This document shows positions 1,589-22,251 of a stretch of DNA of 64,000 nt, one piece after another (the stretch's first letter is position 1; the number at the start of each line of letters is the position of its first letter). Below the pieces are notes generated by a model, which did no database searches, had not been told where the DNA came from, and saw only the letters and a list, made by a program, of their open reading frames with translations. The DNA is from Pseudomonadota bacterium (GTDB lineage: Bacteria > UBA10199 > 2-02-FULL-44-16 > DYJF01), in the NCBI GenBank assembly GCA_043823065.1, contig JBDRBB010000008.1, positions 93,643 through 157,642 on the forward strand, written 5' to 3'. The translations under genes and the position numbers were made by a program.

Positions 1589-1627
1589 TTGTCATCGCGA
1601 GGAGCCTATGCTCCTCGCAATGACAAA
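1589..1627. repeat. REP-like hairpin (17-bp stem ttgtcatcgcgaggagc/gctcctcgcaatgacaa), probable bidirectional terminator
   Basis: Lies between convergent genes and overlaps the last 5 codons plus the stop of the ABC-F gene. Same TGTCAT...ATGACAA termini as the other copies. Confidence 0.5.
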
Positions 1628-3453
1628 TCAAACTCCTTCTCTTTTTCCTGATACAATTTAGCAGCTTTTTCTAGGTCGGCAAAAGTTTGATCTATTTTTT
1701 GCTGAATATTTGAGGCTTTTTTAGAGAGATTTATAACTTCTTCCATGTTTTGTGCTTCGTTGGCAATTTGCAATTGCTCATTAATGGTTTCCAACTGCTT
1801 TTCAAAATCGCAAATATTGTTTTCCAATTTTTCAATTTTTATTTTCAAAGGTTTAAGAGTTTTAGATTTTTCATTCAGGAGTTGGCCGCGTTTTTGGCGC
1901 AGCTCTTTTTTAGATAGTTGAGGTTGGTTTGCTGGTTTTGTTGTTTCTTTTAAATCTTTTTCTTCTTCCCAGCCAACTTGTCTTAAGAAATCATCGTAGC
2001 TGCCATGAAATAATTCTACATTGTCATGTTGAAAAACTAAAAGCTTGGTTGGAACGCGCTTGAGAATCATTTCATCATGAGTGACAATAATTACTGTTCC
2101 TGGAAAACGCTCTATGCTTTCCACCAAAGCTTCCACTGATTGCACGTCTAAATGGTTGGTTGGTTCATCCAGTAAGATTAAATTAGCTGGCGTGGCTAAG
2201 ATTTTAGCCAAAAGCACTCGGCTTTTTTCGCCACCAGAAAGTACGGAAATCTTTTTTAGGGCATCATCCCCACTAAACATCATTACCCCGCAAATGCCTC
2301 TTACTACAGTCCGTCCAAGATTGGGATTGCTGGTTTCCACTTCTTGTTCCACAGTTAGTTCTGAATTTAAGCGATCAATGTTGGTTTGGCCAAAATAGTC
2401 CAGTTTAGTGTTTACGCTATGTTTAATTTGTCCTTGCTTGGGGCTCAGTTCTTGGGCGATAAGTCTAAGCAAGGTAGATTTGCCTTTGCCGTTTTTGCCA
2501 ATTACTGCAATGCGATCATTAGTTTCCACAAAACAGCTAAGGTTTTTAATTAGTTCTTGTTTTGGTTCATAATAAAAACCAAGGTTTGTGATCTCCAACA
2601 TGGTTTTGCCGGGAAAGTCAGCAGCTTGAAAATCAAAACTCAAATCATAAAGCGTTTCCAGTTTTTGGCGTTCAGGTATTTTTTCCAACATGCGCCGCCT
2701 GGATTTGGCTTGAGTGGCTGTAGCTGGATTGGCGATATTTTTATCTATAAAAGTTTGTAATTGGCGACGCTGCTTTTCTTCACTTATTCTTTGTTTTTCA
2801 TAATGCTCTTCAAACTCATCAATAACCTTGGCCAGCTTGGCGGTAGATCCTTTAACCCTTAAAATATTTTGGCGATGAATAATTGCTGTGTGGGTGGTTA
2901 CATTGTCTAAAAAAGACTGATCATGCGAGATGATAATCATCTCATTTTTCCAAGATCTGATAAAACGAGTGATCCAACGGATAGCTACAATATCTAAATA
3001 GTTGGTTGGTTCATCTAAGAGTAAAAGATTGGGTTTAGAAACCAAGGCTTTGGCCAAACTTAAGCGCACTTGAAAACCGCCAGAAAGTTCGTGTGGGTCT
3101 TTGGTTAAATCTTCTTTGCTAAATCCTAGACCAAATAAAATTTCTTCTACTTTATAGTGATCATATTTTTCTTCAGATCTAAGTCCTTGGCAACCAACTT
3201 CCAGCACAGTTGGAACATTAAACTTAAGATGCTGGGAAAGATGTGAAATCTGATAATTTTTAGGTGAGATTATTTCGCCGCTGTCTAGACCTTCTTCGCC
3301 AGAAATTATTTTAAATAAAGTGGATTTGCCTGAGCCATTTCTGCCAATTAATCCTAGGCGCATTTCTGGTTCAATTTGAAGAGAACCCTTATCTAAGATA
3401 AGGTGTTTGCCAAAAGATTTTGTAATTTCATGCAAGCGAATCATGATGAGCAA
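1606..3453 (-). CDS. ABC-F family ATPase (two ABC cassettes plus C-terminal coiled coil, Uup/EttA-like)
   Basis: Two Walker A motifs (GRNGSGKST, GKNGKGKST), two LSGG signatures (LSGGFQVRL, LSGGEKSRV) and a charged coiled-coil C-terminus. Confidence 0.85.
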   Translation of the reverse strand: MLIMIRLHEITKSFGKHLILDKGSLQIEPEMRLGLIGRNGSGKSTLFKIISGEEGLDSGEIISPKNYQISHLSQHLKFNVPTVLEVGCQGLRSEEKYDHYKVEEILFGLGFSKEDLTKDPHELSGGFQVRLSLAKALVSKPNLLLLDEPTNYLDIVAIRWITRFIRSWKNEMIIISHDQSFLDNVTTHTAIIHRQNILRVKGSTAKLAKVIDEFEEHYEKQRISEEKQRRQLQTFIDKNIANPATATQAKSRRRMLEKIPERQKLETLYDLSFDFQAADFPGKTMLEITNLGFYYEPKQELIKNLSCFVETNDRIAVIGKNGKGKSTLLRLIAQELSPKQGQIKHSVNTKLDYFGQTNIDRLNSELTVEQEVETSNPNLGRTVVRGICGVMMFSGDDALKKISVLSGGEKSRVLLAKILATPANLILLDEPTNHLDVQSVEALVESIERFPGTVIIVTHDEMILKRVPTKLLVFQHDNVELFHGSYDDFLRQVGWEEEKDLKETTKPANQPQLSKKELRQKRGQLLNEKSKTLKPLKIKIEKLENNICDFEKQLETINEQLQIANEAQNMEEVINLSKKASNIQQKIDQTFADLEKAAKLYQEKEKEFDLSLRGA

Positions 3454-3462
3454 ACACTAATA

Positions 3463-3966
3463 CTAATTAGGGGTTCTCCAATCAATAAGAATATTGGTTG
3501 GTTTTTGAGGATCCACAAATACAGGAAAAACATTCCCTGGAGAAATTCTATTTAAGTAAAGCAAGCCAACATATTCTTCATGTTGAATAATATAGGGTTT
3601 TCTGTTGGGCAGCGTAATTTCCAGCTCAAAAGCTATTTTAGGGGCATTATTTAACATTGAACCTGTTTCTTCGCAGGAAATTAGCTTGGCTGTTCCTTGA
3701 AGGCCATTTTCCCACAGCCAAGTGGCATGTCTGTTACCGTGTTTAGCCCACAACAAAACGCTAAATATTCCGATAAAAGGAGAGATTATAAAGAAAACTG
3801 CCAGCAAGATCATCTCTGATCTACGGGACATAATATCAAAGGTGCCAGGGACATAAGAGCCAACTTGAATAGCAAGAAATAATATAAATAAACCAACTAG
3901 CACAGCAGTAGTGGTTACTAAAGTGAAAATCCAAGAGGCATGTTTTGTTGGTTTCCAAACTCCCAT
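3463..3966 (-). CDS. Hypothetical membrane protein
   Basis: Start trimmed to the internal ATG (MGVWKP...) so that it abuts the pilin stop. N-terminal TM helices plus a C-terminal soluble domain. Confidence 0.4.
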   Translation of the reverse strand: MGVWKPTKHASWIFTLVTTTAVLVGLFILFLAIQVGSYVPGTFDIMSRRSEMILLAVFFIISPFIGIFSVLLWAKHGNRHATWLWENGLQGTAKLISCEETGSMLNNAPKIAFELEITLPNRKPYIIQHEEYVGLLYLNRISPGNVFPVFVDPQKPTNILIDWRTPN

Positions 3967-3967
3967 C

Positions 3968-4375
3968 TTAATCCTCAGTATAGGTGAAAGTTCCAGCGCT
4001 GTCATCATATTCATACTGAGATCCGGTAGGTCCCTGATAGTTGGTGTCATCTATTTTGCTCCAACCTCCAGTTGTAATGCCGCTTTTAATTACATCATCA
4101 AAACAAGGGTTGGTGCGGGTGCAATTTCCAGCTGCAGAATTATCCAGCTCTGCTGGATATCCATCGCAAGCGCCATCAATGCAGCTGCTGACATAATAAA
4201 GACTAATGCCAGATCTAACAGCTGAGACCACACCTTCTTCAGCATTGATCCTGGCTTGGGTTAGAGAAATATTAAAGATATTGGGTAGGGCTGAAACCAC
4301 CAATAAACCTAAAATAGCTATGACCAAAACTAGCTCAATTAAGGTGAATCCAGATGCTTCTTTTGACATGCCCAT
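3968..4375 (-). CDS. Type IV pilin / pseudopilin-like protein (prepilin N-terminal cleavage-methylation domain)
   Basis: N-terminus MSKEASG|FTLIELVLVIAILGLL is the canonical prepilin leader followed by the FTLIE motif. Cys pair in the C-terminal region. Confidence 0.7.
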   Translation of the reverse strand: MGMSKEASGFTLIELVLVIAILGLLVVSALPNIFNISLTQARINAEEGVVSAVRSGISLYYVSSCIDGACDGYPAELDNSAAGNCTRTNPCFDDVIKSGITTGGWSKIDDTNYQGPTGSQYEYDDSAGTFTYTED

Positions 4376-4426
4376 TATATTTAATAAGTAATGTTTTTTA
4401 CTTAATTTTGCAAATTCATAATAAAA

Positions 4427-4457
4427 AGAGAGCCCTTATCGTTTGATAAGGGCTCTT
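4427..4457 (-). terminator. Rho-independent terminator downstream of the 4486..4899 gene
   Basis: Stem agagcccttatc/gataagggctct, followed on the minus strand by a TTTTTATT run. Confidence 0.5.
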
Positions 4458-4485
4458 TAAATCTAATTAGTTTGAATATTTTTAA

Positions 4486-4899
4486 TTATGCTGTTTGGAG
4501 ATGAGCTTGCTCTTGTTTTCCAAAAACCAAGATCAAAAATAAGATGATGTTAACTACTGGCACTAAAGCTATGACAATTCCCCACCAGCCTGGCTTGCCC
4601 AAGCGCTCACAAATAGCCATCCACAGCAAAATAGCAAAAACCAGATTTACAATGGGAATTAGAAACATGAAGAACCACCACCAGGGTTTGCCGCCAATTT
4701 TTATTACTAGAAAAATATTGGCAATAGGAATTAAGGCCCAGATAAAACTGGAACCCATGGGCATGCCCACTTTTTTGGCTAGTCTAGCCAGGCAATAGGC
4801 ACAAAAAACATAGAGCACGAGAAAGACAATTAGAGAGCCAACTCCCATCCATGGTGATTGCGGTGCCATTTCTTGCACTTGCAAAATTTCTTGTTCCAT
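4486..4899 (-). CDS. Small polytopic membrane protein with an internal duplication (DUF5684-like)
   Basis: Two repeated units: (IPIANIFLVIKIGGKPWWWFF / LVPVVNIILFLIL with GKPGWWG). SD AAAGGGGGA is supplied by the 31-bp repeat just upstream. Confidence 0.5.
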   Translation of the reverse strand: MEQEILQVQEMAPQSPWMGVGSLIVFLVLYVFCAYCLARLAKKVGMPMGSSFIWALIPIANIFLVIKIGGKPWWWFFMFLIPIVNLVFAILLWMAICERLGKPGWWGIVIALVPVVNIILFLILVFGKQEQAHLQTA

Positions 4900-4902
4900 A
4901 CT

Positions 4903-4933
4903 TCCCCCTTTGTTGGTTTTGATAGGTTATATT
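4903..4933. repeat. 31-bp direct repeat, copy 1 (reverse complement AATATAACCTATCAAAACCAACAAAGGGGGA)
   Basis: Identical to 6883..6913. Contains the histidine-kinase stop codon and the SD for the downstream gene. Confidence 0.6.
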
Positions 4934-6114
4934 GGTAATAAAATAACAAAATTAGAGCCCTTGCCAAGCTGAGATTCCAAGTGGATGCTCCCTTCATAGG
5001 CAGATACAATGTGTTTAACAATAGCCAGTCCCAGGCCAGCACCTTTAATATTTCCTGTAAAATACTTGTCTATCTGATAAAATTTATCAAATATTTTCTC
5101 TCTTTCTTCCGGTGGAATGCCAGGCCCGTTATCAGAGATTGAAAGATTGATTTTACCCCCTTCTTTTTTAACGCTAATATTGATTTTGATAATTTCTTTA
5201 TCATTAAATGTTATAGCATTTTCTAAAAGATTTCTTGCTATCCAATTCAGGTGGTTTCTATTTATATTTAGAGTTATATTTTCTACATTCTCAGTGTCAA
5301 ATTCTAGTTTCTTGTCTCTTGCGAATTGACTAAATTCATGAGTTAGATTTAATAAATAAGGTTTTAATTCTATAGCTTCTTTTGTTGTTTCTAATTTTTG
5401 ACCTTCCAGATTTGAAAAACCTATTAGTTTTTCGATTAAATTTTCCAAGGTGTCAGTTTTTTCTTGAATGGTAGTGACAAACTTCATTTGTTTTTCATTA
5501 AGCGCTCCTAATGTTTTGTCCCCTAAGATTTCTATGCTTCCCCTTAAAACTGTAAGAGGGGTGCGCAACTTATGGGAAATAAGATTGATGAAAATTTTCT
5601 TTAATGTTTCTTCTTGGCGAGCCTCTGTTACATTTCGCAAAATCCAAATAATATTGGTAATATTACCCCGCTGATCTTTTAATATGTCTAAGCTGCCTTC
5701 CAAGTATAGAGTTGTAAACTGCTCTGTTTCTTCTCGTACTAAATCAAACTTTTTATGGGGTTTTGAGACATCTAACAACTCCTCCTTACTCATGCTGATT
5801 TTGTATTGGTTAAACATGATTTCCTGTAAGTTAGCATTTTCATAATTTGTTAGGTTTAAATACCCTTGAGCCGTTTTGTTAATAGAAATGATTTTACAAT
5901 CTGGATTGCAGACAATAATTCCATCTCCCAAATTTTGAACAATAGTTTCAAATTTCTCTTTTTCTGCCTGTTCTTTAACTTTTTGTAATTCTGCTTGAAT
6001 ATGTCGTAAGCGTGTAATTGTTTCACCAATTATTTGTTTTTCTTGTGCTAAGAATATTTCTAGACTCTTGGCTCGAAAACGGTATTCTAATAGTTCTATT
6101 TTTTTGGTATCCAT
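4927..6114 (-). CDS. Sensor histidine kinase (PAS plus HisKA plus HATPase_c), no obvious TM segment
   Basis: H-box LISHKLRTPLTVLRGSIEIL. G-boxes SDNGPGIP and GAGLGLAIV. Confidence 0.85.
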   Translation of the reverse strand: MDTKKIELLEYRFRAKSLEIFLAQEKQIIGETITRLRHIQAELQKVKEQAEKEKFETIVQNLGDGIIVCNPDCKIISINKTAQGYLNLTNYENANLQEIMFNQYKISMSKEELLDVSKPHKKFDLVREETEQFTTLYLEGSLDILKDQRGNITNIIWILRNVTEARQEETLKKIFINLISHKLRTPLTVLRGSIEILGDKTLGALNEKQMKFVTTIQEKTDTLENLIEKLIGFSNLEGQKLETTKEAIELKPYLLNLTHEFSQFARDKKLEFDTENVENITLNINRNHLNWIARNLLENAITFNDKEIIKINISVKKEGGKINLSISDNGPGIPPEEREKIFDKFYQIDKYFTGNIKGAGLGLAIVKHIVSAYEGSIHLESQLGKGSNFVILLPI

Positions 6115-6875
6115 CCGTATAATTCCTCCTCAGTCAATTGAGAATCAATTCCACACTGAAGTTTGCTTAAAGCATCAATGCATTTGGGTATCATGTCTGC
6201 TTTGATGATTGAGCCATGTTGGGGCAAGATCATCGCTAGATCTAGCTTGCTGACCCTGGTCATAACTGCGTTTAAATGTTTGTTGCTGGCCATAAAGCCC
6301 ACATGAAAACTTTCCATTTGTTTTTCATATCCTTGTTCAGCATAAAGTTTCCATCCTTTGGATATGGCGCCAAAAATATCAGAGGAAAACAACAACTTCT
6401 GTTTAGCATCGTAGGTCATTAAGGCTGCTGGAAAATGACAAAAAGGAGTAGTTATGAATTTTAGTTGGCGACCGCTTTTGAGAGTAAGAGAATGCTTATG
6501 TTTATCTACCGGATAAATTTCACTTTTTATGTCATAATATTTGATAAGCACAGCTGCGCGTGAGTGGGTCACAATTTTTAATTGTTTATTTGGAATTAAA
6601 TCTTCTAAAAGAGGTACTGCAGCGCAAATATCTGGATCTTGATGATGCAAAACTATATAGCTGACTTGTTGAGGATCTATTAAAGAGAAGATTTTTCCTG
6701 CTACTTTGGGAAACTCCCTGGTCCCAGCAGGATCAAAGATCACTGCTTCTTCTCCATCTATTAATAGATAAGGATTGCAGTGAAAGGCAGCTTGCTCATC
6801 ATAAAAACCAACCCAATATACGCCTTCTACTATTTCAATTGGTTCAAGATAATCATATAATAACTTCTCTGCCAT
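6096..6875 (-). CDS. Metallo-beta-lactamase-fold protein, possibly an ODP-like di-iron sensor partner of the kinase
   Basis: LHHQDPD motif. Overlaps the kinase start by 19 nt, suggesting translational coupling. Size (~260 aa) and context (adjacent to a histidine kinase) resemble stand-alone oxygen-binding di-iron (ODP) proteins. Confidence 0.55.
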   Translation of the reverse strand: MAEKLLYDYLEPIEIVEGVYWVGFYDEQAAFHCNPYLLIDGEEAVIFDPAGTREFPKVAGKIFSLIDPQQVSYIVLHHQDPDICAAVPLLEDLIPNKQLKIVTHSRAAVLIKYYDIKSEIYPVDKHKHSLTLKSGRQLKFITTPFCHFPAALMTYDAKQKLLFSSDIFGAISKGWKLYAEQGYEKQMESFHVGFMASNKHLNAVMTRVSKLDLAMILPQHGSIIKADMIPKCIDALSKLQCGIDSQLTEEELYGWIPKK

Positions 6876-6882
6876 GTTATAA

Positions 6883-6913
6883 TCCCCCTTTGTTGGTTTT
6901 GATAGGTTATATT
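6883..6913. repeat. 31-bp direct repeat, copy 2
   Basis: Identical to 4903..4933. Supplies the SD (AAAGGGGGA) immediately upstream of the MBL-fold gene ATG. Confidence 0.6.
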
Positions 6914-7110
6914 TTACAGAAATTAGAGGCAGGAGAAAAGTAATTAATTTCTAGGCCATTTGTGCTGACAAACCTTTTTTAAGAATATGTTTTTGGATTA
7001 AATTTTTGCCAAAGACAAAATATAACATTAACCCAATGCTAGCCAAGAATATTAATCCAAAGCCAAATCTTGTTTAGGTTGGCAATTAAAACCCCCTAAA
7101 AACCTTAATT

Positions 7111-8952
7111 TTATTGCCTGGTGGCATTTATAGTAAAGGTATACTCATCCATACTTGATTGCTTGGTGCCAGATGCTGTCATGGTATTGCCTGAAATCGT
7201 GGCTGTAAATGGGGCCACATTTGTAACATCAAGATCAAAGAATGAGAATTCATAATTGCCGTTGCTAAGTACTGTGCCTGCTAGCGTGCCTTCAGAGCTG
7301 TGGATGTCTGGTGGACAGCTAAGTGTTGGATCTTCTGACACTACACTCTCTTGGATGTTAGTAAAATAACTTGTTCCAGAAAGTATGCCTGCTTCGTTGG
7401 TTATGGACATCGATATATTGCCGGTGGTGGTATAGGTGCAAACCCATACGCCGTTAAACACGTCAACAATTTCATAGGTTCCAGACCAGGTTTCGGTGCC
7501 TTCTGTGCCGCCTCCTCCATCTGCTGAAACAATGGTCAGAATGATTTCTTCAGATATGCCGTTTATAGTCACGGTTATTCTAACCGTGCCTGGCCCAACT
7601 CCAGTAACCAAGCACTCTTCGTCAACTGTGGCCACTGAAGTATCATCAGCAACGCAGCTATAGAGGAAATCTTCCAGTTCGTTTCCTGAAATGTCATAGG
7701 CGCTTGGTATCAGCTGAAGCAAGTAGCCGTCACATAGCTCATCGCTCTCAACACTTACATTTACGCTGGCCACGGCAGTTGCCGGGTTGCCATTGGCATT
7801 GGCCAAGTCCCAGACGTCGTTAAGCTCAGCCCCACCACCAGCCTCACCAGCAAAAATTATCATGCGGTTGGTTGCCTGGGCATAGGCAATGCCAAGGTAG
7901 CGACGCGCAGTTGGAACTGGATTGCAAACCACATAGGTGCTCCAGGTAGGTGAGGTTCCGCGGGAATCAAGCAATATGGAGACTTCGTTTAATGCTGTAT
8001 TTGAGGCATTAACGCCGCCAAAGACAATCATTCGATCTTGAGTAGGATCATATACTGCGCTGTGACTATATCTGTTTTCAGTTGAAGCTGAAGGGGACAA
8101 ATTGGTCCAGCTAGGTGTTTCGCCTGTGCCGTTGGCATTGGAAAGTACCCACGTATCATTTTTAGAAGATGAAGCAACGCTGGTGCGTGAAGTAGAAGTG
8201 CTGCCTCCAAAAATGATCAAGCGATTGTCTGTTGAATCATAAACAGCGCTGGCCGCAAGCCTGGCTGAAGGTGCTGTTCCAGAAGGGGTTAGCTGTTGCC
8301 AGGTTGGAGCAGTTGTTGCATTGGTGATAAGATAGACATTGTTATACAACGTGCAGGTAGAAGTTCCGCAGGCTCTGCCGCCAAACAAAATAAGCGTATC
8401 ATTTGTTTCATCATAGGCAAAAGCCATTATAGCTCTAGATGAAGGTGCGGTTCCAGCAATAGCTGGATTGGTCCAAACAGGCGCACCTCCAGTGCCATTG
8501 GCATTGGAGAGTAGCCACAGATCCATATAAATTCCTGCTGAGTCAGAACCACCAAAGAGGATAAAATTATTGGCATTACTGTTATAGGCAACAGCAGAAA
8601 ATGCCCGGGCTGCAGGCGGGCCTCCAACTGGAGCTAGCTCTGTCCAAGCAGGAGTGTCAGTTCCTGAAGCATTGGTTAGAACAAAAATATCATTAAGATA
8701 GTTTGTGCCGTCATACCCCCCAAAAGAAATAAGGATGTTGTTGGTTGCATCATAGGCCACGCCTGGCGAATAGCGTTCAGACGGGCTGGTCCCGGTTGGA
8801 GAATGTTGGGTCCATACAGATGCGCAGGTAGCTGTGCTTGTATAATTTAAACAGACAAGTTCACCACCACCAGACCCGCCGCCACCGCCACAACTAGCCA
8901 AGCAGATAATACTAAAACAAAATACTAATATTGTTCTGATCTGTTTTTTCAT
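7111..8952 (-). CDS. Kelch-repeat beta-propeller lipoprotein with a C-terminal bacterial Ig-like (Big_2-like) domain
   Basis: Signal peptide plus lipobox LASCGGGGGSGGG. Repeated motifs (NxLIxFGG, YDxTNNxLIxFGG, VYDSTDNRLIIFGG) typical of Kelch blades. Confidence 0.7.
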   Translation of the reverse strand: MKKQIRTILVFCFSIICLASCGGGGGSGGGELVCLNYTSTATCASVWTQHSPTGTSPSERYSPGVAYDATNNILISFGGYDGTNYLNDIFVLTNASGTDTPAWTELAPVGGPPAARAFSAVAYNSNANNFILFGGSDSAGIYMDLWLLSNANGTGGAPVWTNPAIAGTAPSSRAIMAFAYDETNDTLILFGGRACGTSTCTLYNNVYLITNATTAPTWQQLTPSGTAPSARLAASAVYDSTDNRLIIFGGSTSTSRTSVASSSKNDTWVLSNANGTGETPSWTNLSPSASTENRYSHSAVYDPTQDRMIVFGGVNASNTALNEVSILLDSRGTSPTWSTYVVCNPVPTARRYLGIAYAQATNRMIIFAGEAGGGAELNDVWDLANANGNPATAVASVNVSVESDELCDGYLLQLIPSAYDISGNELEDFLYSCVADDTSVATVDEECLVTGVGPGTVRITVTINGISEEIILTIVSADGGGGTEGTETWSGTYEIVDVFNGVWVCTYTTTGNISMSITNEAGILSGTSYFTNIQESVVSEDPTLSCPPDIHSSEGTLAGTVLSNGNYEFSFFDLDVTNVAPFTATISGNTMTASGTKQSSMDEYTFTINATRQ

Positions 8953-9301
8953 AACCCAACCTCCGAATGAAAAAACTCCACCAATATGATTGGCTTGTAG
9001 AAGATTCTATTTCCGCCAGTGGTAGTTGTCAAAATCTATTATTTCACGATCTAGGCTAAATTACGCTGATCCAATATTTAGTGCCAGGTTAAAAATAGTA
9101 TGTTATAAGCATTGAAGATTAATATGAATAAAATAAAAAATATTTATTATAATTGTGATTGTGTTTTTTGGCGTAAGCCTGAATAGCTGCGGCTCAGGTT
9201 CAGCATCTATCAAGGACACATTGTATCCTCGTGTAAAACAACGCCTTGTCTGGTTTTAGATTTTATAGTATATGTAACACAACTCAAAAGGAGGGAGCGT
9301 T

Positions 9302-9439
9302 ATGAAAAAAAGATGGCTGTGGTTGTTTTTTGGCTGTGTCGTATTGTCAGTTGCAGCTTTAGTATTATACTCATGTGGTTCCAGCGGAACGTTCGAACCC
9401 ACGACTTATACTGTGACGCTGAAAGGAGCATCATCATGA
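9302..9439 (+). CDS. Small (45 aa) lipoprotein-like ORF; not in the ORF track
   Basis: Strong SD AAAGGAGGGAG 6 nt upstream. Sequence MKKRWLWLFFGCVVLSVAALVLYSC GSS... has a signal peptide and lipobox. Its stop overlaps the next gene's start (ATGA). Confidence 0.35.
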   Translation: MKKRWLWLFFGCVVLSVAALVLYSCGSSGTFEPTTYTVTLKGASS

Positions 9440-10131
9440 AAAAAATTATTTATCTAGGGTTGCTACTTTCATTCTTGTCGTCCCCTGCTTTGGCAGCGAC
9501 AAACGCTTCTTCAGCTATAATAAGACTTTACAAGGCCTATATGTCAACCAGCGGTGACTGCTCGTCGCCAGAAGTGTTCTTTGATGCTGCCAGCGATCCA
9601 ACGACCTATCCCAACGGCTATGCCGAAGTAGACATGGTCAACAATCCGACGATAGGCAGCGGCTCTCTGACTGGCGGAACCTATCAGTGCGTTATCTTCA
9701 AAATGTCTGATCAGATCACCTTTACGGCAGCTGATGATGAAGGTGCCCAGTGCGTTCAAGATCAGACATACACGACCGATGTTTGCTGGAATTGGAACGA
9801 TAACGTGGTCATCAAGAACCCAGAAACTAATGAGGAGACGCTATGCACAACCATGGGTGAGCCAGCCGAAACCATTTGGGTTTATATTAGCACCTGGTCG
9901 ACCCTCTTAACAGGATCAGGGTGCGAGGACTGCGACGGGTTTATTCCGCCGACAACTGATGGTGACACGAAAAACGGCTATAAGTTAACAAACGCTGTTG
10001 ATCTTGGCAGTAATATTATTGGGACGTTTGTTTTCGGAACCGATGGTAAAGTCGTTACTGAACAGTCAGGGGGGCTGGAACGGTGCGGATTAGAGACTCC
10101 TGATTTTTCATTCAGAGTCGAGGCGCAGTAA
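9436..10131 (+). CDS. Secreted Cys-rich protein of unknown function
   Basis: Start trimmed to MKKIIYLGLLLSFLSSPALA (signal peptide) with SD GAAAGGAG upstream. About 10 Cys. Confidence 0.55.
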   Translation: MKKIIYLGLLLSFLSSPALAATNASSAIIRLYKAYMSTSGDCSSPEVFFDAASDPTTYPNGYAEVDMVNNPTIGSGSLTGGTYQCVIFKMSDQITFTAADDEGAQCVQDQTYTTDVCWNWNDNVVIKNPETNEETLCTTMGEPAETIWVYISTWSTLLTGSGCEDCDGFIPPTTDGDTKNGYKLTNAVDLGSNIIGTFVFGTDGKVVTEQSGGLERCGLETPDFSFRVEAQ

Positions 10132-10175
10132 AAATAGGTATATTAATCAGAGTAAAATATATAGTAAAACTATTT

Positions 10176-11402
10176 ATGAAAAAACCAATTTGCTCTTTGT
10201 TGTTTTTGATCATGTTGGCAGGCCTTGGTGGTTGTTCTGGCCCCTTGCCTTGTGCTGGGATATCTGCTCCAAATCTCACCTGTCTTAGTTCCTTTGAAGA
10301 AGGAGTTCTTTTTGAAACAACCGGACAAAGTGGAGGCAACAAGTTTAAAGTTTTGGTGTTAAATGGAACCTGGCAGGAGATGGGCAGGCAATATGGTTAT
10401 TTGGTTCTAGATGAATTAAATGAATTTTATGATCTAGTGGTCACTGATCATCTGATGAACACTCAGGGTCTTGCTTATGCAGAGATATTAGAATCTGCGC
10501 AACAACTATATGACCAAAGATATGATTATCAAAAAGAACTTGTTGCTGGTTTGGCTCAGGTTCCTACGTTAAGTTTGGAAAAAGCCATGATCATCAGCTC
10601 GCTTATTGATTTGGTCGAGCCAGAAGCAGGTTGTTCTAGTATGGCAGCCTGGGGCGAATATACTGCAGACAGGCCTTTGGTGGTTGGTAGAAACTGGGAC
10701 TTGGCGCCGCCATTTGGCGAATTCAAAAAATACATGTCGGTGGTTGTTTACAATCCACAAGATGGTGTCACCAGTTTGGCTGATATTAATTTTTTGGGCA
10801 CAATTTCTCTACAGACTGGTATAAATAGTCATGGTATATTTTTGGATGTGCAAAATGGATCACACTCAGATCCTACACCGCCTATTGAAGATAGAAGGTA
10901 TCCTACTTATGTATTAGGTGATGTTTTGCTAAATTCTCAGAACATCGAAGAACTTGACGCGCAAATGATGTCAGAGGCTAATCTTCCTAAACTTGCTGCA
11001 ATTATTAATGTGGCTGAACCAAGTGAGGATTTGGTTTATGAATGGGCTACTTATGATGTAAAACAAAGGACAGCACAGGGACTGATTGCTTCGTCTAATC
11101 ACTTTGTAAATCCAGATTGGACTGATTTGCCAGTGGTCGAGCCTGGCGCAGCAGGTGATTATAGCTTGGAAAGGTTGGCTAATCTATTGGCGCTGGGAGA
11201 AGAGTATAAAGGCTCTATTGATGCCACAGTAATGCAGCAGATATTTGATACTTCTTTTGATGATGGCGGCCCAACCTTTTCAGAATATACAGTTTATCAA
11301 GTTGTGGCCAGACCAGCAGGTAAAACCATCTGGCTTAAGACACCTGGCCTTTCTGGTTGGGAAATTATTGAACTTGAATCTCTTTTCGCTGTCTCACCTT
11401 GA
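10176..11402 (+). CDS. Lipoprotein, peptidase C45 / acyl-CoA:6-APA acyltransferase-like Ntn-hydrolase (putative)
   Basis: Lipobox LAGLGGCSG. Candidate autoproteolytic Gly-Cys nucleophile (GCSSMAAWG) followed by GRNWD, which resembles the C45 RNxDW motif. Confidence 0.45.
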   Translation: MKKPICSLLFLIMLAGLGGCSGPLPCAGISAPNLTCLSSFEEGVLFETTGQSGGNKFKVLVLNGTWQEMGRQYGYLVLDELNEFYDLVVTDHLMNTQGLAYAEILESAQQLYDQRYDYQKELVAGLAQVPTLSLEKAMIISSLIDLVEPEAGCSSMAAWGEYTADRPLVVGRNWDLAPPFGEFKKYMSVVVYNPQDGVTSLADINFLGTISLQTGINSHGIFLDVQNGSHSDPTPPIEDRRYPTYVLGDVLLNSQNIEELDAQMMSEANLPKLAAIINVAEPSEDLVYEWATYDVKQRTAQGLIASSNHFVNPDWTDLPVVEPGAAGDYSLERLANLLALGEEYKGSIDATVMQQIFDTSFDDGGPTFSEYTVYQVVARPAGKTIWLKTPGLSGWEIIELESLFAVSP

Positions 11403-13880
11403 GCGCTTGCGCGTGCTGATCATGGCTGGTTTTACGTTCCAAATCTCTTTGGTATATTCCTGAATGGCCCGGTCTGAAGAAAATTTTCCAGAACGTGCGG
11501 TATTAAAGATAGAAATGCTGGTCCATTTTTCCACATTCTCTCTGGTTTGGCTCACCCTTTCCTGACAAGCAGCATAGCTGGAAAAATCAGCAAGCACAAA
11601 ATAAGGATCATCCCAGCGCAAATTTTCCACGATCGGAAAAAAAACATCTTTATCGCCATTGGAAAAATGTCCAGAGGAAAGAAGTGAGAGTGCTTCAGCA
11701 ATTCTAGGATCATTTTCAATAAAAGATGCAGGCCGGTAACCATCATAGCGCAAACGTTCAACCTGCTTGGTGGTAAGACCAAAAAGGAAAAAATTTTCTG
11801 GTCCAACTTCTTTAAGAATTTCGATGTTGGCGCCGTCCAGCGTGCCAATGGTAGCAGCGCCGTTCATCATGAACTTCATATTGCCAGTGCCAGAGGCTTC
11901 TTTGCCAGCTGTTGATATTTGCTCAGAAAGATCGCCGGCTGGATAGATGAGCTGCGCTAGTTTAACATTAAAATCCGGGATAAAAGCCACTCGCATGTAT
12001 TGATTAACCTGAGGATCAGCATTTATTACTTCACCTACAGCTGTGATTAATTTGATAATTCGCTTGGCCATGAAATAGCCTGGCGCTGCTTTGCCGCCAA
12101 AGAGGAAAACTGTTGGTAGTGGCTGATATTTTGGATCGCGTTTTATCCGGCAATACTGGGTGATAACATAGAGCATATTTAGATGCTGCCGCTTATATTC
12201 GTGAATCCTTTTGACTTGCACGTCAAAAAACCAGTCAGGATCGATTTTGATTCCAGTTTGCGTAAACACGTGAGTAGTTAGCTGCTCTTTCTTTAAACGT
12301 TTAACAGCGCGCCACTGTTTTCTAAACTCTGCATCTTTGGCAAATGGCTCAAGTTCGCGCAAGCGCGTAATATCTGTCACCCAACCTTTGCCAATAGTAT
12401 CATTGATCAAAGTAGAAAGTTCAGAGTTACAAACTCTTAAGAAACGGCGGGGAGTGACGCCATTGGTCTTGTTGGAAAAGCGTTCTGGCCACATTTCAAA
12501 AAAATCTTTGAGCACAATTGTCTTGAGAAGTTCAGTATGTAGTTCAGCCACGCCATTGATAGCATGGCTGCCAATGCAAGCCAGGTGGGCCATGCGGATG
12601 CGTTTTGGATCTCCTTCAGCAATAATTGACATGCGACGCACGCGCTCTTCATCACCAGGAAACTTTTTGCGTACCTCATCCAAAAAGCGGCGATTGATTT
12701 CAAAAATAATTTCCAGATGTCTGGGTAGCTGACCTTGAAAAAGAGGCAAGCGCCAAGTCTCCAGAGCTTCCGGTAAAAGGGTGTGATTGGTGTAGCCAAA
12801 AGTTTTAACGGTAATCTCCCAGGCAGGATCCCAATCTAGATCATACACATCAATTAACAAGCGCATCAACTCAGCCACAGCAATTGAAGGATGAGTATCA
12901 TTGAGTTGAACTGCAAACAGATCTGGAAACGAGGTAAGTGGTTTGCCAGACATCTCAATAAAGTGCAGCATGTCTTGCAAAGAACAGGAAACGAAAAAGT
13001 ATTGCTGCATTAGCCTTAACTTTTTACCAACCAAAGGCCCGTCATTAGGATAAAGGACTTTGGTGATTGTCTCTGAGAACATCTTTTCGTGCACAGCTTC
13101 ATAATAATCGCCGGCATTGAAGGCCTGAAAGTCAAACGATTCGCAAGCCTCAGCGCTCCAAAGTCTTAAAGTGTTGCAGGAATTTACGTGATAGCCCAAA
13201 ATTGGTGTGTCATAAGCCATGCCCCGGACCATGTGAAAGGGAATCCAGCGCACGCGAAAGCGCCCATTCTCATCAGTAAAGCTTTCAGTATGTCCGCCAA
13301 TGCCCACGTTATAGGTAACAGTAGGTTTGGCAATCTCCCAAGGGTTTCCATAGCGCAGCCACTTGTCGGTGACCTCAACTTGCCAGCCATCGCGAATCTG
13401 TTGATCAAAAATTCCAAATTCATAGCGAATGCCATAGCCGATGGAGGGACAAGTAAGTGTAGCCAGCGAATCCAGATAGCAAGCAGCTAAACGCCCAAGT
13501 CCTCCATTGCCTAGACCAGGCTCTTCCTCTTCTATCAGAAGGTCTTCTAGTTCAAAGCCAAGATCTTTCAAGGCTGCGCGAACTTCCTGCTCAATGTCTA
13601 AATTGACAATATTGTTGCCAAGGTGAGGACCCATTAAAAACTCTGCAGAAAGATAGCAGGCAACTTTTAGGCCGCGGCCATGATAGGCTTCCACCGAGTG
13701 TCCCCAAAGATGCTGCATGCGGTCGCGCACTGCCAAGGCCAGGGCTTTATAATATTCGTGTTTGGTGGCAGAGGATGGTATCTTGCCAATGGTGTAGGTG
13801 AGGTGGTCTTGCACAGACTGTTTTATAGCTTCAACACTGTTGCTGATCCGGCCGTTTACTTTTGATTTTTGCTCGCTCAT
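11394..13880 (-). CDS. glgP: Glycogen (alpha-glucan) phosphorylase
   Basis: GNGGLGRLAACYLDSLATL and the PLP-lysine signature EASGTGNMKFMMNGA. 828 aa. Confidence 0.95.
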   Translation of the reverse strand: MSEQKSKVNGRISNSVEAIKQSVQDHLTYTIGKIPSSATKHEYYKALALAVRDRMQHLWGHSVEAYHGRGLKVACYLSAEFLMGPHLGNNIVNLDIEQEVRAALKDLGFELEDLLIEEEEPGLGNGGLGRLAACYLDSLATLTCPSIGYGIRYEFGIFDQQIRDGWQVEVTDKWLRYGNPWEIAKPTVTYNVGIGGHTESFTDENGRFRVRWIPFHMVRGMAYDTPILGYHVNSCNTLRLWSAEACESFDFQAFNAGDYYEAVHEKMFSETITKVLYPNDGPLVGKKLRLMQQYFFVSCSLQDMLHFIEMSGKPLTSFPDLFAVQLNDTHPSIAVAELMRLLIDVYDLDWDPAWEITVKTFGYTNHTLLPEALETWRLPLFQGQLPRHLEIIFEINRRFLDEVRKKFPGDEERVRRMSIIAEGDPKRIRMAHLACIGSHAINGVAELHTELLKTIVLKDFFEMWPERFSNKTNGVTPRRFLRVCNSELSTLINDTIGKGWVTDITRLRELEPFAKDAEFRKQWRAVKRLKKEQLTTHVFTQTGIKIDPDWFFDVQVKRIHEYKRQHLNMLYVITQYCRIKRDPKYQPLPTVFLFGGKAAPGYFMAKRIIKLITAVGEVINADPQVNQYMRVAFIPDFNVKLAQLIYPAGDLSEQISTAGKEASGTGNMKFMMNGAATIGTLDGANIEILKEVGPENFFLFGLTTKQVERLRYDGYRPASFIENDPRIAEALSLLSSGHFSNGDKDVFFPIVENLRWDDPYFVLADFSSYAACQERVSQTRENVEKWTSISIFNTARSGKFSSDRAIQEYTKEIWNVKPAMISTRKRSR

Positions 13881-13942
13881 ATTTTCCCAGAAGTTTTAAT
13901 AATAAGCTAGGTCATTATTTTTATCAATAACTACTATTAGTT

Positions 13943-13989
13943 GGTTTGTGGTTTTGATCATTGCAATGTTAAGGTTTTTTTTGGGGGGG
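13943..13989. repeat. Repeat B copy 1: ~40 bp with core palindrome CATTGCAATG and a T8G7 homopolymer tract
   Basis: Matches 18503..18543, where the tract is only T5G4. Lies in the divergent promoter region between glgP and the 14161 gene. Confidence 0.55.
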
Positions 13990-14160
13990 CGATGAGCTGT
14001 CTCGGAATTTTGCGTGTCAATTACCTGACTTGAAAAATATCGTTCAACAAGTAATTTATTACCCCCTCTTTCCAAAATACTATAATTAACAGTCAATTGG
14101 ATGATTTGTTTTTGGCATATAATATGCACAAAAAATTATATGGTATATAAAGGAGATTTT

Positions 14161-14610
14161 ATGAAAAAATTAATTTTTTCCATTTTTGCAACTTTTTTTC
14201 TGATTGCTCTAATGATTACAGAAGTTGCTGCCCAAGGTTTTCAAATTATGATTATTGATAAAGATACTGGCCAGGGAATTTCTAGTGCAACTGTAGATAT
14301 TGAACTTGGTACACGGCCTAAGCTTGGTGATATTTCTGCTCGGACTTATGATTACGAAAAGATTGCCACGTTGTGGACGTTGGATGGATATTTAAATGGA
14401 GTTACAACAATTCCCATTGATTTAGACGAAGTTGCTGAAGAATATATTAGCGTTAGATTAAAAATATCTGCGCCTGGATATAAAACTATTTTTAAAAAAT
14501 GGAATAATTTGAATAATAATTTTATAAATACTGAGCCTGCACCAACGCTGGAAATTGGTTTAGAAAAAATTCCAAAGATCAGAGTATTTCAAAGATTGCT
14601 TGATGAATAA
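14161..14610 (+). CDS. Small secreted protein with a carboxypeptidase-regulatory-like beta-sandwich
   Basis: Start at MKKLIFSIF... (signal peptide) with SD GGAG upstream. Motif GFQIMIIDKDTGQGISSATVDIE. Confidence 0.45.
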   Translation: MKKLIFSIFATFFLIALMITEVAAQGFQIMIIDKDTGQGISSATVDIELGTRPKLGDISARTYDYEKIATLWTLDGYLNGVTTIPIDLDEVAEEYISVRLKISAPGYKTIFKKWNNLNNNFINTEPAPTLEIGLEKIPKIRVFQRLLDE

Positions 14611-16387: not shown

Positions 16388-16813
16388 TTAGATATCCTGT
16401 AACAGTTCAGAATGTATTTTCCTTAATAGCTTATCTCTTGCAGTTCTAAAGGCGTTGTACTTCTCATCTGTTGAGAATTTAACAACTGCCGGATCTTCGA
16501 TGTTCCAGTGAATCATCTTGCTTCCTGCAAAATAAGGACACGACTCTTTGGCATTATTGCAAACAGTAATGACAAAATCAAAAGAAGCGTTTTTAAATTC
16601 ATCTACTGATTTTGAACGATACGATGAAATATCAATTCCTATTTCCTTCATAACTTCTATTGCGTGTGGATTAACGACTGTAGGATTAATCCCTGCGCTA
16701 AATACTTCATACTTATTACCAGCTAGATGGCGCAGTAATCCTTCCGCAATTTGACTTCTGCAAGAATTCCCCGTGCATAAAAATAAAACTCGTTTCTTCA
16801 TTGTTCTCCTCAA
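16388..16813 (-). CDS. arsC: Arsenate reductase, LMW-PTP family (thioredoxin-coupled)
   Basis: P-loop VLFLCTGNSCRSQIAEG. 141 aa. Confidence 0.85.
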   Translation of the reverse strand: MRRTMKKRVLFLCTGNSCRSQIAEGLLRHLAGNKYEVFSAGINPTVVNPHAIEVMKEIGIDISSYRSKSVDEFKNASFDFVITVCNNAKESCPYFAGSKMIHWNIEDPAVVKFSTDEKYNAFRTARDKLLRKIHSELLQDI

Positions 16814-16829: not shown

Positions 16830-17999
16830 TTATATAAAATATCCAAACAACATCCCGCTGATGGTTGACATAATAACAACCAAAGAAACATAGGCAATGG
16901 TCTTTTGGGTGCCAATCACTCCCCGAATGACCAGCATGTTTGGAAGGCTCAAGGCTGGTCCTGCCAGAAGAAGCGCCAGAGCAGGGCCTTGCCCCATTCC
17001 TGCGCCGATGAGTCCTTGCAATATCGGTATTTCAGTAAGTGTCGCGAAATACATAAACGCACCGACAAAGGAGGCAAAAAAGTTTGCTGACAGGGAATTC
17101 CCGCCTACAAATCTAGCGACCCAACTAGACGGTATGAGTCCCTCGTGATCGGGTCTGCCCAAAAGAAAACCCGCGACAACAACTCCGATAAAAAGAAGCG
17201 GCATGATCTGCTTGGCAAAATTCCAAGAAGCCCTAGTCCAACTTGTAATCTCATCTTTCTTAAACCAACTGATAATCGTGTAGATAAGCACTAAAAGAAA
17301 TGTTCCGGTGATGTACCATTTATATGAGTAGATCAAAGCCCATGTAGTAGAGTCTTCCCCAGAAGGTTTTCCCCAGTTTGCAAAGACCAAAACACCAACC
17401 ATAGAAGCAAAATAGATAATCTCTTTCCAAAAAGGCCGTGCGATTTTTTCTTCAGAAAAAGTAAGATTGCCGCTGGCATGCCTCTCTCTTTCTTCCCTAA
17501 GAAATAAGAAGTGCATCAATAGGCCGACAACCACACTAAAAAGAATCGCGCCGATTGCCCTTGCCAGACCCAGCTTAAAACCAAGTATTCTTGCGGTCAT
17601 TATGATGGCCAGAACATTTATGGCTGGCCCGGAATAAAGAAAGGCAATTGCAGGGCCAAGACCAGCACCTCTTTTGTATATACCTGAAAAAAGCGGCAGT
17701 ACCGTACAGGAGCAAACAGCAAGAATAGCACCTGACACAGAAGCGACGCCGTAAGCCAAGACTTTATTTGCCTTTGCGCCGAAATATTTGATGACCGAGG
17801 CCTGACTTACAAATACCGCTATTGCTCCGGCGATAAAAAAGGCTGGAACCAGACAAAGCATGACATGTTCCTGCGCATACCACTGGGTCAGCGCGAGCGA
17901 CTCGAAGAAGGGTCCACTAAACGGGAGCATTCCAAGTGGAAAAAAATACAAGACGAGGAACACCGCCAACATAAGGATAAATTTATAAATCTCTCTCAC
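16830..17999 (-). CDS. DUF318 / ArsP-like predicted permease
   Basis: CSCTVLP motif, resembling the ArsP-family motif as I recall it. GTG start with SD AAGGGGGAA, overlapping the DUF134 stop (GTGA). Confidence 0.7.
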   Translation of the reverse strand: MREIYKFILMLAVFLVLYFFPLGMLPFSGPFFESLALTQWYAQEHVMLCLVPAFFIAGAIAVFVSQASVIKYFGAKANKVLAYGVASVSGAILAVCSCTVLPLFSGIYKRGAGLGPAIAFLYSGPAINVLAIIMTARILGFKLGLARAIGAILFSVVVGLLMHFLFLREERERHASGNLTFSEEKIARPFWKEIIYFASMVGVLVFANWGKPSGEDSTTWALIYSYKWYITGTFLLVLIYTIISWFKKDEITSWTRASWNFAKQIMPLLFIGVVVAGFLLGRPDHEGLIPSSWVARFVGGNSLSANFFASFVGAFMYFATLTEIPILQGLIGAGMGQGPALALLLAGPALSLPNMLVIRGVIGTQKTIAYVSLVVIMSTISGMLFGYFI

Positions 18000-18325
18000 T
18001 TCTTCCCCCTTGAAGGTACCACCTTGCAACAACCACCTTCAATCTTGATTGCCTTGAGATTTACAAAAGCATCGGTTACTTTTTTGTGTGCAGAGGCTAA
18101 AATCCTTGAGATCGTTGAACGGTGAATTTTCATTTTGCTTGCTACTTCTTCCTGCTTCATTTTTTCAAGGTACGAAAGCCGCATGGCCTCAAATTCATCC
18201 AGTGACAATACAACACCTTCAAGCTCAGATGTCCTTTTACACTTCGGTCTGAAGCAGCGCTCGTTGATATCACATCTTACCCATCGTTGCTTTTTTGGTC
18301 TCATAATCACCTCATGGTATTGCAC
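17996..18325 (-). CDS. DUF134 (UPF0251) DNA-binding protein, putative operon regulator
   Basis: Matches the DUF134 pattern: RPKKxR...F.P...LSLDEFEAMRL...EVA..M...RSTI.RIL.SA.KKV.DA.VN.KAI.I. Confidence 0.7.
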   Translation of the reverse strand: MQYHEVIMRPKKQRWVRCDINERCFRPKCKRTSELEGVVLSLDEFEAMRLSYLEKMKQEEVASKMKIHRSTISRILASAHKKVTDAFVNLKAIKIEGGCCKVVPSRGKK

Positions 18326-18368
18326 CTATGTGCATAACATTTCAAACACAATGGAGTCAACAGCTTAT

Positions 18369-18412
18369 ATTAAGGGATCAAGTCTTGCGTTTCGTGTTTT
18401 GAATCTACTTAT
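18369..18412. repeat. Repeat A copy 1 (ATTAAGGGATCAAGTCTTGCGTTTCGTGTTTTGAATCTACTTAT)
   Basis: Near-identical copies at 20756 and 22158, all in the same orientation. Confidence 0.6.
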
Positions 18413-18502
18413 ATTAAACATAAGATGGAGGAAAATGTCTAAGGGTGTAATTACTTAGAGCTATTTGTCTTTTTGTTCGTCCGTCTTATGAGTTTCTTAG
18501 TG

Positions 18503-18543
18503 GGTTTATGGTTTTGATCATTGCAATGTTAAGGTTTTTGGGG
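18503..18543. repeat. Repeat B copy 2 (palindrome CATTGCAATG core, T5G4 tract)
   Basis: Matches 13943..13989. Lies in the divergent promoter region between the DUF134 gene and the 18642 lipoprotein gene. Confidence 0.55.
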
Positions 18544-18641: not shown

Positions 18642-19772
18642 ATGAAAGTAAAAGATAGGAAATTCTTGTTCGTGTGTGGCATTGTTAGCCTGCTGGCGTT
18701 TGCAGCGTGTGGAGGTGGTTCTAGTGGTGGCGGCACAACAAGTGCGGCCTTTCCAACCAGTATGGGAGTTGATGTGAGCAGCGTTTCATCAGAAGATCTC
18801 CAGAACGTTAATTTTTCAGTGGCCAAGGCAGGCATACCTGACACAGGCACCATGTCCGCGCCCATAACTACGGCTACGAACATGGCAGATCTTGTTACCA
18901 AATTATCTGATCATATGTTTTCCGGAATTGCGGCTGCCTTAAATAGCCAGCTGACGTCAACTGCCACGCAAATAAGCGGCACTGTGTTTGGCGGCACCCT
19001 GAAAATGGATTTTTCAAACTACAATTATGATGTGGATGGAGATGGAGAAAATGATCCATGTTCTGGAACAGCATCAATAACTTCAACACAGTATACTTGT
19101 TTCAGGGCCTGGTTTAATGATAATCGCTTTATGATTGGATATCTTCAAACAGCGCCGACCGCTGACAATTCAGGCAGAGGCATAGTAATTGCGTCCCCTA
19201 CCTTAGTTGCTGATGCCACCCAGGTTGATGCGATTGGTATGGGCAATAATGTAATGACCTACCTCATGTGGGATAACACCGTGGCAGCAGAAAATACTTT
19301 TAACGGCTATATGTCAGGGCAGATGATGGAGGCCCCAGGTACAGGTACGCCAGTAGATCTCACCATTGGCAGAATTGCTGCTAGTTCTGATACAACAACA
19401 GATAAGATTACACTTAGAACAGCAGCCTACTTTGGTACACCGCAACCAGTAACAATCCCCAATGTTGGGGAAGTCGAGGTTGACCAAGTGTTCTTTAATT
19501 CACAATTTATTTCAACCGGCACCTATCTTTTGTTTGAAAATGATTTCCTCTTTCAAGGAGCTGAGGTTGCGGCTGCCCCGAATAACATCTGGTTTTGTGG
19601 TGTTATAGCAACTGGCAATCCGGCAGCTCCTGGAGAGCCTCAGGATACCAGGCTTTGCGAGGGAGAAGGGCTTAGTGCTACCGGCATTGAATATCCTTCG
19701 CTTGCGGCAACTGATGCCTCCAAGACCCAGTTCCCGAACACCACTGTATTTCCTGAAGCCCCGACGTTCTAG
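18642..19772 (+). CDS. Lipoprotein of unknown function with a Gly/Ser linker
   Basis: SD GGAGGGGG upstream. Signal peptide and lipobox LAFAACGGGSSGGG. Confidence 0.55.
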   Translation: MKVKDRKFLFVCGIVSLLAFAACGGGSSGGGTTSAAFPTSMGVDVSSVSSEDLQNVNFSVAKAGIPDTGTMSAPITTATNMADLVTKLSDHMFSGIAAALNSQLTSTATQISGTVFGGTLKMDFSNYNYDVDGDGENDPCSGTASITSTQYTCFRAWFNDNRFMIGYLQTAPTADNSGRGIVIASPTLVADATQVDAIGMGNNVMTYLMWDNTVAAENTFNGYMSGQMMEAPGTGTPVDLTIGRIAASSDTTTDKITLRTAAYFGTPQPVTIPNVGEVEVDQVFFNSQFISTGTYLLFENDFLFQGAEVAAAPNNIWFCGVIATGNPAAPGEPQDTRLCEGEGLSATGIEYPSLAATDASKTQFPNTTVFPEAPTF

Positions 19773-19793
19773 CTTTTCATAGTTATAACTTGG

Positions 19794-19848
19794 AATTCCA
19801 GGGATACGATACATATTCATCGTGTCCCTGGAATTTTTATTTTGTTTG
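19794..19848 (+). terminator. Rho-independent terminator (16-bp stem aattccagggatacga/tcgtgtccctggaatt plus a T-run)
   Basis: Seen directly, 22 nt after the 18642..19772 stop. Confidence 0.6.
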
Positions 19849-19960: not shown

Positions 19961-20058
19961 AGTCTCGGCCAGTATCTTATCAATACCTTGTATCCAAATG
20001 GTTGGTCGGAATTTTTTGGAGCATTGTACCGCTAGATGGTTAAAGAAGGTGAGTGTAT

Positions 20059-20700: not shown

Positions 20701-20755
20701 GTTAAATCTTATAATATTTACTCCGTCTGACGAATTTAGAGCACTTGTGTTTCTT

Positions 20756-22199: not shown

Positions 22200-22213
22200 T
22201 AAAAAATCATAAA

Positions 22214-22247: not shown

Positions 22248-22251
22248 TCTG

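Follow-up and report, generated by a model that had tools for sequence, protein, structure and literature searches.

Why should two copies of one 31-bp sequence stand on either side of a small pair of signaling genes in an uncultured bacterium, and does the enclosed DNA behave as a mobile unit? The question arises in a 64-kb stretch of contig JBDRBB010000008.1 (hereafter the window, meaning the whole of the DNA analyzed), where the repeat brackets a gene for an oxygen-binding di-iron protein (ODP) of the MBL fold and the gene for its partner histidine kinase (HK), and where the next gene downstream encodes a small membrane protein of the DUF5684 family. Our analysis indicates that the locus probably represents a presence/absence polymorphism, in which a promoterless ODP-HK cassette, gained by horizontal transfer, entered the 5' leader of the DUF5684 gene. 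The event was probably a one-off and not the signature of a new kind of mobile element.

The repeat pair and an allele without the insert

The 31-mer AATATAACCTATCAAAACCAACAAAGGGGGA occurs in two exact copies on the minus strand of the window, at 6883-6913 and 4903-4933. The features on which the argument turns are as follows.

6911 to 6939, minus strand: conserved promoter-proximal block TTTTCTCCTGCCTCTAATTTCTGTAAAAT, probable promoter of the ODP-HK-DUF5684 unit (inferred role)
6883 to 6913, minus strand: repeat copy 1, native DUF5684 leader from the 3' part of a -10-like TAAAAT to the ribosome-binding site AAAGGGGGA, now serving ODP
6096 to 6875, minus strand: ODP (oxygen-binding di-iron protein, MBL fold), 259 amino acids, intact from its native start, PF19583
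4927 to 6114, minus strand: HK, a cytoplasmic PAS-HisKA-HATPase_c histidine kinase of 395 amino acids (Pfam), whose start overlaps the 3' end of ODP by 19 nt
4934 to 6882, minus strand: segment absent from a conspecific contig, 1949 bp, which with one repeat copy forms the 1980-bp insertion/deletion unit (blastn and base-level comparison)
4903 to 4933, minus strand: repeat copy 2, containing the Ile codon and stop of HK and the DUF5684 ribosome-binding site; here the -10-like hexamer lacks its upstream half
4486 to 4899, minus strand: DUF5684 small membrane protein, 137 amino acids, PF18936, original owner of the leader and now third gene of the unit
4429 to 4456, minus strand: strong intrinsic-terminator-like hairpin 3' of DUF5684, 12 pairs followed by a T run

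An earlier reading of the sequence alone had placed the 31-mer upstream of both the MBL-fold gene and the next gene, with the second copy running over the kinase stop codon and with the two coupled genes overlapping by 19 nt, all of which is correct. Copy 1 is separated by 7 nt from the ATG of ODP (6875) and copy 2 by 3 nt from that of DUF5684 (4899), while positions 2 to 7 of copy 2 read ATA TAA, the final HK codon and its stop (4927-4929). Because the neighboring bases of both copies differ immediately on each side, the repeat is exactly 31 nt long; the copies start 1980 nt apart and enclose 1949 bp of unique DNA. That such an arrangement exceeds chance, as had also been proposed, is clear from the expectation of ~1.6e-9 exact 31-mer pairs in 64 kb, and segment pairs of a comparable kind, 1.9 kb apart, share longest common words of 7-14 nt. 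With up to 3 mismatches allowed, the window holds no third copy (0 matches in 100 shuffles), and its 17-nt core, searched in the window with 3 mismatches allowed, gave no additional copy except one poor match. We also considered, and rejected, the possibility that the 31-mer is simply a leader in use throughout the genome: a search covering one genome per species returned a single copy in the species-representative genome, and the JGI metagenome collection yielded none (a 24-mer had no match in its contigs).

The only contig found in that search, JAHJGZ010000246.1 (L001, 2547 bp), is the empty site with one repeat that the sequence-only reading had suggested looking for. It follows the window from 2513 to 4933 at 99.88% identity and then continues straight into 6914-7039 (blastn), joining 4933 to 6914 without ODP or HK. 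Against the window sequence from which the insert has been removed in silico, it shows differences at positions 3065, 4778, and 4779 only, and since it carries these three single-nucleotide polymorphisms (SNPs) besides the precise junction, we regard it as an independent haplotype of the same species. Two alleles within one species thus differ by exactly one repeat copy plus 1949 bp. The proposal of a 1.98-kb unit inserted at a 31-bp site that supplies the ribosome-binding site is therefore supported both by the filled and empty alleles and by the identity of the repeat as the DUF5684 leader, in which that ribosome-binding site lies. As a separate observation, this species (99.9% identity over 2.4 kb) is labeled "Pseudomonadota bacterium" in one NCBI metagenome-assembled genome (MAG) and Candidatus Omnitrophota in the MAG of L001, so that at least one label is wrong.

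Could the difference between the alleles be an assembly artefact, with L001 collapsed or chimeric across the repeat, or with the window contig wrongly threading a foreign segment? L001 is short, and the MAG to which it belongs (mb.92) is fragmentary: the protein collection contains its DUF5684 variant, and at ≥90% identity no ODP, HK, or Kelch protein of this MAG was found there, the Kelch gene next to the cassette thus being missing along with the cassette genes. However, L001 is a k=141 contig, and assembler logic implies that each 141-mer over the 31-bp repeat needs read support and that a competing cassette branch would have caused a break, which the contig does not show as it passes the repeat. 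It has SNPs of its own, and in three outgroups, independently, the leader immediately precedes DUF5684. Were the insertion in the window false, a foreign segment with the 31-mer at both ends would still be needed. We consider an artefact very improbable.

Origin of the leader and of its duplication

DUF5684 genes in other genomes (the closest being 76-77% identical) show to which gene the 31-mer belongs. In one outgroup (L002), the 80 nt before DUF5684 read ...TTTTCTCCTGCTCTTTATTTTTGTAAAATAT...AAAGGGGGGATTATG. The DNA strictly upstream of copy 1 matches the upstream region of this gene at 27 of 35 ungapped positions (none of 1000 shuffles was as good), and the DNA upstream of copy 2 gives no alignment with it (500 of 1000 shuffles were as good). 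In L010, a divergent intergenic region particular to that locus precedes DUF5684 and contains TTGTAAAATA, followed after some 20 nt by AACAAAGGGGGGAATTTATG. A ribosome-binding site of the form AAAGGGGG(G) lies no more than 5 nt upstream of the DUF5684 ATG in five loci (L002, L010, L007, L091, and L093), and the two ends of the leader, TGTAAAATA and AACAAAGGGGG, are common to the window, L010, and L002, with a diverged middle. Judged by these sequence comparisons, the 31-mer is the native 5' leader of DUF5684, extending from inside the -10-like TAAAAT to the ribosome-binding site. The outgroups therefore show that promoter, leader, and DUF5684 form the ancestral arrangement and that ODP-HK was inserted into it. 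Moreover, as species differ in the middle of the leader, the perfect match between the two copies reflects a recent duplication and not selection on a motif. The 35-nt alignment with L002 extends across the block at 6911-6939, which a generic sigma-70 scan did not call.

One group of outgroup loci (L007 6778-8411, also L008 and L009) has a PAS histidine kinase gene as the immediate upstream neighbor of DUF5684, and a good promoter-like site separates the two. We rejected a conserved kinase-DUF5684 pairing, as this kinase is only 24% identical to the HK of the window; its position is probably a coincidence, because four other outgroup neighborhoods have no kinase.

The unique DNA is trimmed closely to its reading frames, spanning from 7 nt before the ODP ATG to the last-but-one codon of HK. 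The insert carries neither a ribosome-binding site of its own for ODP nor a stop for HK, whose C terminus, LPI*, resembles the LPA*, LPG*, or LPLI* of its orthologues. No promoter-like site above background was found inside the insert, no terminator was called between HK and DUF5684, and from one repeat copy to the other only a single terminator-like structure was called, a weak stem of 5 pairs within the HK coding sequence (5040-5024). Thus, ODP is intact from residue 1, HK has a natural LPx* end, and a terminator follows only after DUF5684, all of which we count in favor of an insertion into the DUF5684 transcription unit.

Such a structure probably arose in one illegitimate event with duplication, be it a template switch during replication or the repair of a staggered break, which would leave the leader on both sides of the new DNA. 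The junctions would correspond to short similarities (microhomology) between the borders of the donor ODP-HK genes and either end of the leader, with the left junction at the GGGGGA ribosome-binding site and the right one at the A/T-rich stop region (AATATAA). Junctions of this type would account both for the tight trimming of the insert to its open reading frames (ORFs) and for a duplication that coincides exactly with the leader. At the left junction, microhomology is plausible because the leader of a related ODP gene (L004) has a similar ribosome-binding site, AGGGGGAT. Transcription of all three genes would then start at the former DUF5684 promoter and run to the terminator at 4456-4429. 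Copy 1 would provide the ribosome-binding site of ODP, with HK translationally coupled to ODP, and copy 2 would terminate HK while preserving the translation of DUF5684, so that ODP and DUF5684 would share the same ribosome-binding site.

The two copies may also recombine with each other, by RecA or by slippage, which would excise the cassette precisely; 31 bp is just over the minimal length for RecA-dependent recombination in Escherichia coli (~23-27 bp). It follows that the empty allele of L001 represents either the ancestral state or a reversion to it. A circle released in this way could in turn reenter empty sites by a single crossover, and it is tempting to place the origin of the locus in such a step, in which a 1980-bp circle of ODP-HK plus one 31-mer, released in a different cell of this species by recombination between the repeats, would have undergone Campbell-type integration at the chromosomal leader. 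This would account for the identical direct repeats around the insert and for the precise empty site, the repeat exceeds the RecA minimum, and a related module in another genome (L012), which lies between 97-nt direct repeats of 90% identity, would fit homology-driven integration as well. Yet neither a circle junction nor a tandem copy was seen, and the route can account for the spread of the structure from strain to strain but not for its first origin, because the circle must already hold the host leader. As the explanation of the locus, we therefore find it unlikely.

Several points weigh against insertion of an acquired cassette by illegitimate duplication. The empty site is represented by one contig, a short one that stops 126 nt beyond the repeat, and both alleles are known from assembled contigs. 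The closest candidate donor known is only 71% identical (ODP protein), which is too distant for a comparison of junction DNA. The promoter and the cotranscription of the three genes are inferred from sequence, random illegitimate recombination does not usually leave a 31-bp duplication around an insert cut precisely at its ORFs, and ODP and HK both have ordinary codon usage, not foreign. The GC content of HK is low (0.32 versus 0.40 +/- 0.04, ~2 standard deviations under the mean) and that of ODP ordinary; because only this one value deviates, composition is uninformative about a foreign origin.

The sensor module, its relatives, and mobile-element classes

The proteins of the locus are deposited in NCBI as MFH1874194-197. 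The assignment of the MBL-fold protein as a di-iron ODP, made earlier from the sequence alone, is supported by profile and structure databases. The protein covers the full PF19583 profile (1-194) with 211.3 bits (cutoff 27.2; E 1.5e-62) and matches the crystallized oxygen-binding diiron proteins in PDB (6QRQ/6QWO, E 5.9e-32; 6QNM/6R9N, E 2.2e-27). The candidate metal ligands, in HQDPD and at H147, D166, and H220, are identical in the alignment with the crystallized proteins, and H78, D80, D82, H147, D166, and H220 are invariant across 18 homologues. The 259-residue protein is thus a clear member of the ODP family, for which Fe(II)/O2 binding is predicted. HK combines a HisKA domain (E 7e-14) with HATPase_c (E 7e-26), and the H-box LISHKLRTPL, readable in its translation, supplies the phospho-acceptor histidine expected of a two-component sensor kinase. 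By analogy with the characterized ODP, the di-iron protein would sense O2/Fe(II) and control its partner kinase.

The pairing recurs elsewhere. The nearest ODPs are 68-72% identical to that of the window and their partner kinases 45-52%; for instance, the kinase directly after ODP in L003 is 49% identical to HK over its full length. For L003 and L011-L015, the values are 68-71% (ODP) and 45-52% (HK). An orthologous kinase follows ODP wherever downstream sequence exists (L003, L004-6, and L011-L015), and the two overlap by 16 nt in L003, L012, and L013, for which the limits of both ORFs could be set. ODP-HK is therefore a coinherited, translationally coupled module. Fusions of REC to ODP are frequent among the homologues found. 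In its summary of Muok et al. 2019, PMC7319448 already describes ODPs that share operons with genes for signal transduction or are fused to domains from such proteins. In L004-L006 (bacterium BMS3Abin10, 6759-7509), the kinase after a 71%-identical ODP is split into a 91-residue coiled-coil ORF and a 154-residue HATPase_c ORF; its PAS and HisKA parts are missing, and it appears degraded or remodeled.

In one subfamily (L003, L011-L015, L027, and L028), the DNA of the module is 90-97% identical, between flanks that are unrelated. Its left border is CCTAAAACC, with the same break in two independent contexts, and its right border is ...ATCCTAA. The ODP-HK module clearly moves between contexts, with borders in this subfamily that differ from those in the window, and the subfamily module looks like a mobile cassette of no assigned type. 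Its coordinates are 7860-10067 in L003 and 4853-7067 in L012; the 97-nt repeats around the latter encode small S1-like ORF fragments, not hairpins, and no flanking repeats were found around ODP-HK in L003, L004, or L016. The flanks of the subfamily are rich in toxin-antitoxin/defense-type genes (AbiGi, AbiEii, and AAA_14/DUF4143), and in L003 a 105-nt near-perfect hairpin (z -5.7) lies just upstream of the module.

The sequence-only reading had seen in the window a cassette or target-site-duplication signature. What stands of this are the exact repeats and the empty site: a direct repeat that is identical at the two ends of the insert and occurs once in the empty allele is the arrangement expected of attL/attR-type sites. 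What does not stand is the resemblance to a recognizable transposon, integron cassette, or integrase element. The 1949-bp insert encodes no recombinase, transposase, or integrase among its Pfam matches, only ODP and HK; no terminal inverted repeats were found at its borders (4934/6882), no dyad symmetry or hairpin in the 31-mer (DNA fold of repeat plus flanks, -0.4 to -0.5 kcal/mol, z +1.8), and no Rfam element near the repeats. Among the Pfam-matched neighboring genes from 1606 to 13880 there is no integrase, and two ORFs in that interval have no Pfam match. We accordingly rejected an insertion sequence (IS) element or transposon (no transposase, no terminal inverted repeats, and a duplication of 31 bp instead of 2-15 bp), an integron gene cassette (no attC hairpin found at the 3' end; fold z +1.8), and an integrase-mediated element with attL/attR sites (no recombinase in the insert, and a 31-mer without dyad symmetry). 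A known site-specific system is unlikely, since the insert has no recombinase or terminal inverted repeats, the repeat has no hairpin or dyad symmetry, and neither the window nor the species-representative genome yielded a further copy.

One may still ask whether the 31-mer could be the attachment site of a recombinase encoded elsewhere, be it integron-, Xer/dif-, or integrase-like. The cassette lacks a promoter, is cut precisely at its ORFs, and has the same site on either side, the ODP-HK module of another lineage has recurrent CCTAA... borders in unrelated contexts, and the window contains further repeat-bracketed gene groups. Nevertheless, the 31-mer has neither the symmetry nor the fold of such a site (-0.4 kcal/mol, z +1.8), no recombinase lies in or beside the cassette and no inverted repeats end it, the representative genome has one copy and the metagenome collection none, and the supposed site is simply the leader of a resident gene. 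This explanation is, in our view, highly improbable. We are also skeptical of the broader idea that the leader is a reusable landing pad, at which an unrecognized mechanism plugs promoterless sensor cassettes into resident leaders and duplicates the leader in doing so, a mechanism that the CCTAA-bordered or repeat-flanked ODP-HK modules of other lineages could possibly share. If true, it would let cassette and resident gene both keep a ribosome-binding site, and might also cover the other repeat-bracketed gene groups of the window. The footprint fits a broad known class, namely, repeat-flanked insertions and deletions from illegitimate recombination; the defining features of integron, IS/transposon, integrase, and Xer modules were not found.

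As for its surroundings, the unit lies downstream of a Kelch/Big_2 lipoprotein gene and upstream of a pilin-like gene and an ABC-F gene (Pfam). Elsewhere in the window, three direct copies of ATTAAGGG(A/G)TCAAGTCTTGCGTTTCG(T/C)GTTTTGAATCTACTT occur at 18368-18412, 20755-20799, and 22158-22201, with a core of ~44 nt and the first two copies exact over 45 nt. They bracket 18642-20700 (two ORFs with no Pfam match) and 20885-22153 (an AAA_14/DUF4143 ATPase), the last copy standing beside tRNA-His (22251-22326, minus strand), and they may represent either att-like sites belonging to islets in tandem or a regulatory element present in several copies. A 43-nt direct repeat (13937-13979 and 18497-18539; 95% identical, 31 nt exact) brackets a 4.5-kb block, a second islet of the window that lies between repeats, in which are encoded a permease of the ArsP type (16830-18032) and a low-molecular-weight phosphatase/ArsC-like protein (16388-16813), next to a very AT-rich ORF (14101-14610, GC 0.31). 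Finally, 38595-42805 holds three tandem paralogues (460, 481, and 457 amino acids) with DNA segments 66-89% identical and a 35-nt exact stretch; their motif WPGNVRELEN suggests sigma-54-type response regulators.

Comparison with known systems

The locus is an unusually clean natural case of an acquired sensor module wired into an existing transcription unit, in which one event would have supplied promoter, ribosome-binding site, and stop codon. Because filled and empty alleles both survive in one species, the event is datable and possibly reversible, and it bears on how short leader repeats mediate the gain and loss of signaling genes in uncultured bacteria. No new class of element is called for unless the same footprint proves recurrent.

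Like integron gene cassettes, the insert is a promoterless, ORF-tight unit that depends on a resident upstream promoter and is present or absent at a defined site. Unlike them, it has no attC hairpin and no intI among the Pfam-matched genes nearby, its repeat is the host leader, and it comprises two genes. Target-site duplications of IS elements and transposons are usually 2-15 bp long. With these, and with attL/attR sites, the locus shares identical direct repeats and the one copy at the empty site; it departs from IS elements, transposons, and integrative elements in the 31-bp length of its repeat and in having no transposase, integrase, or terminal inverted repeats. Illegitimate recombination, through short-repeat insertions and deletions or microhomology-driven template switching, makes junctions at short similarities, can leave a short target duplication, and can be followed by precise loss. 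The short target duplication seen here, and the loss that recombination between its copies would permit, are of this kind, although a pair of junctions that gives a foreign operon both a resident ribosome-binding site and a stop is, to our knowledge, rarely documented for illegitimate insertions.

With respect to the sensor itself, the ODP of the window belongs to the same Pfam family as that of Treponema denticola (6QRQ, 6QWO, 6QNM, and 6R9N) and has the same HQDPD...H...D...H positions. In contrast to the chemoreceptor/CheA pathway of the known ODP, its partner is a soluble PAS histidine kinase in an overlapping frame. In the H-NOX/HnoK and NosP/NahK systems, a stand-alone small sensor gene lies directly upstream of a cytoplasmic kinase, with presumed regulation in trans. 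ODP-HK resembles these in having a small sensor upstream of, and apparently cotranslated with, a soluble kinase, and differs from them in using a di-iron MBL fold instead of haem, that is, an unrelated fold and cofactor. It thereby adds a translationally coupled pair of ODP and soluble PAS kinase to the known recruitments of di-iron O2/Fe(II) sensors.

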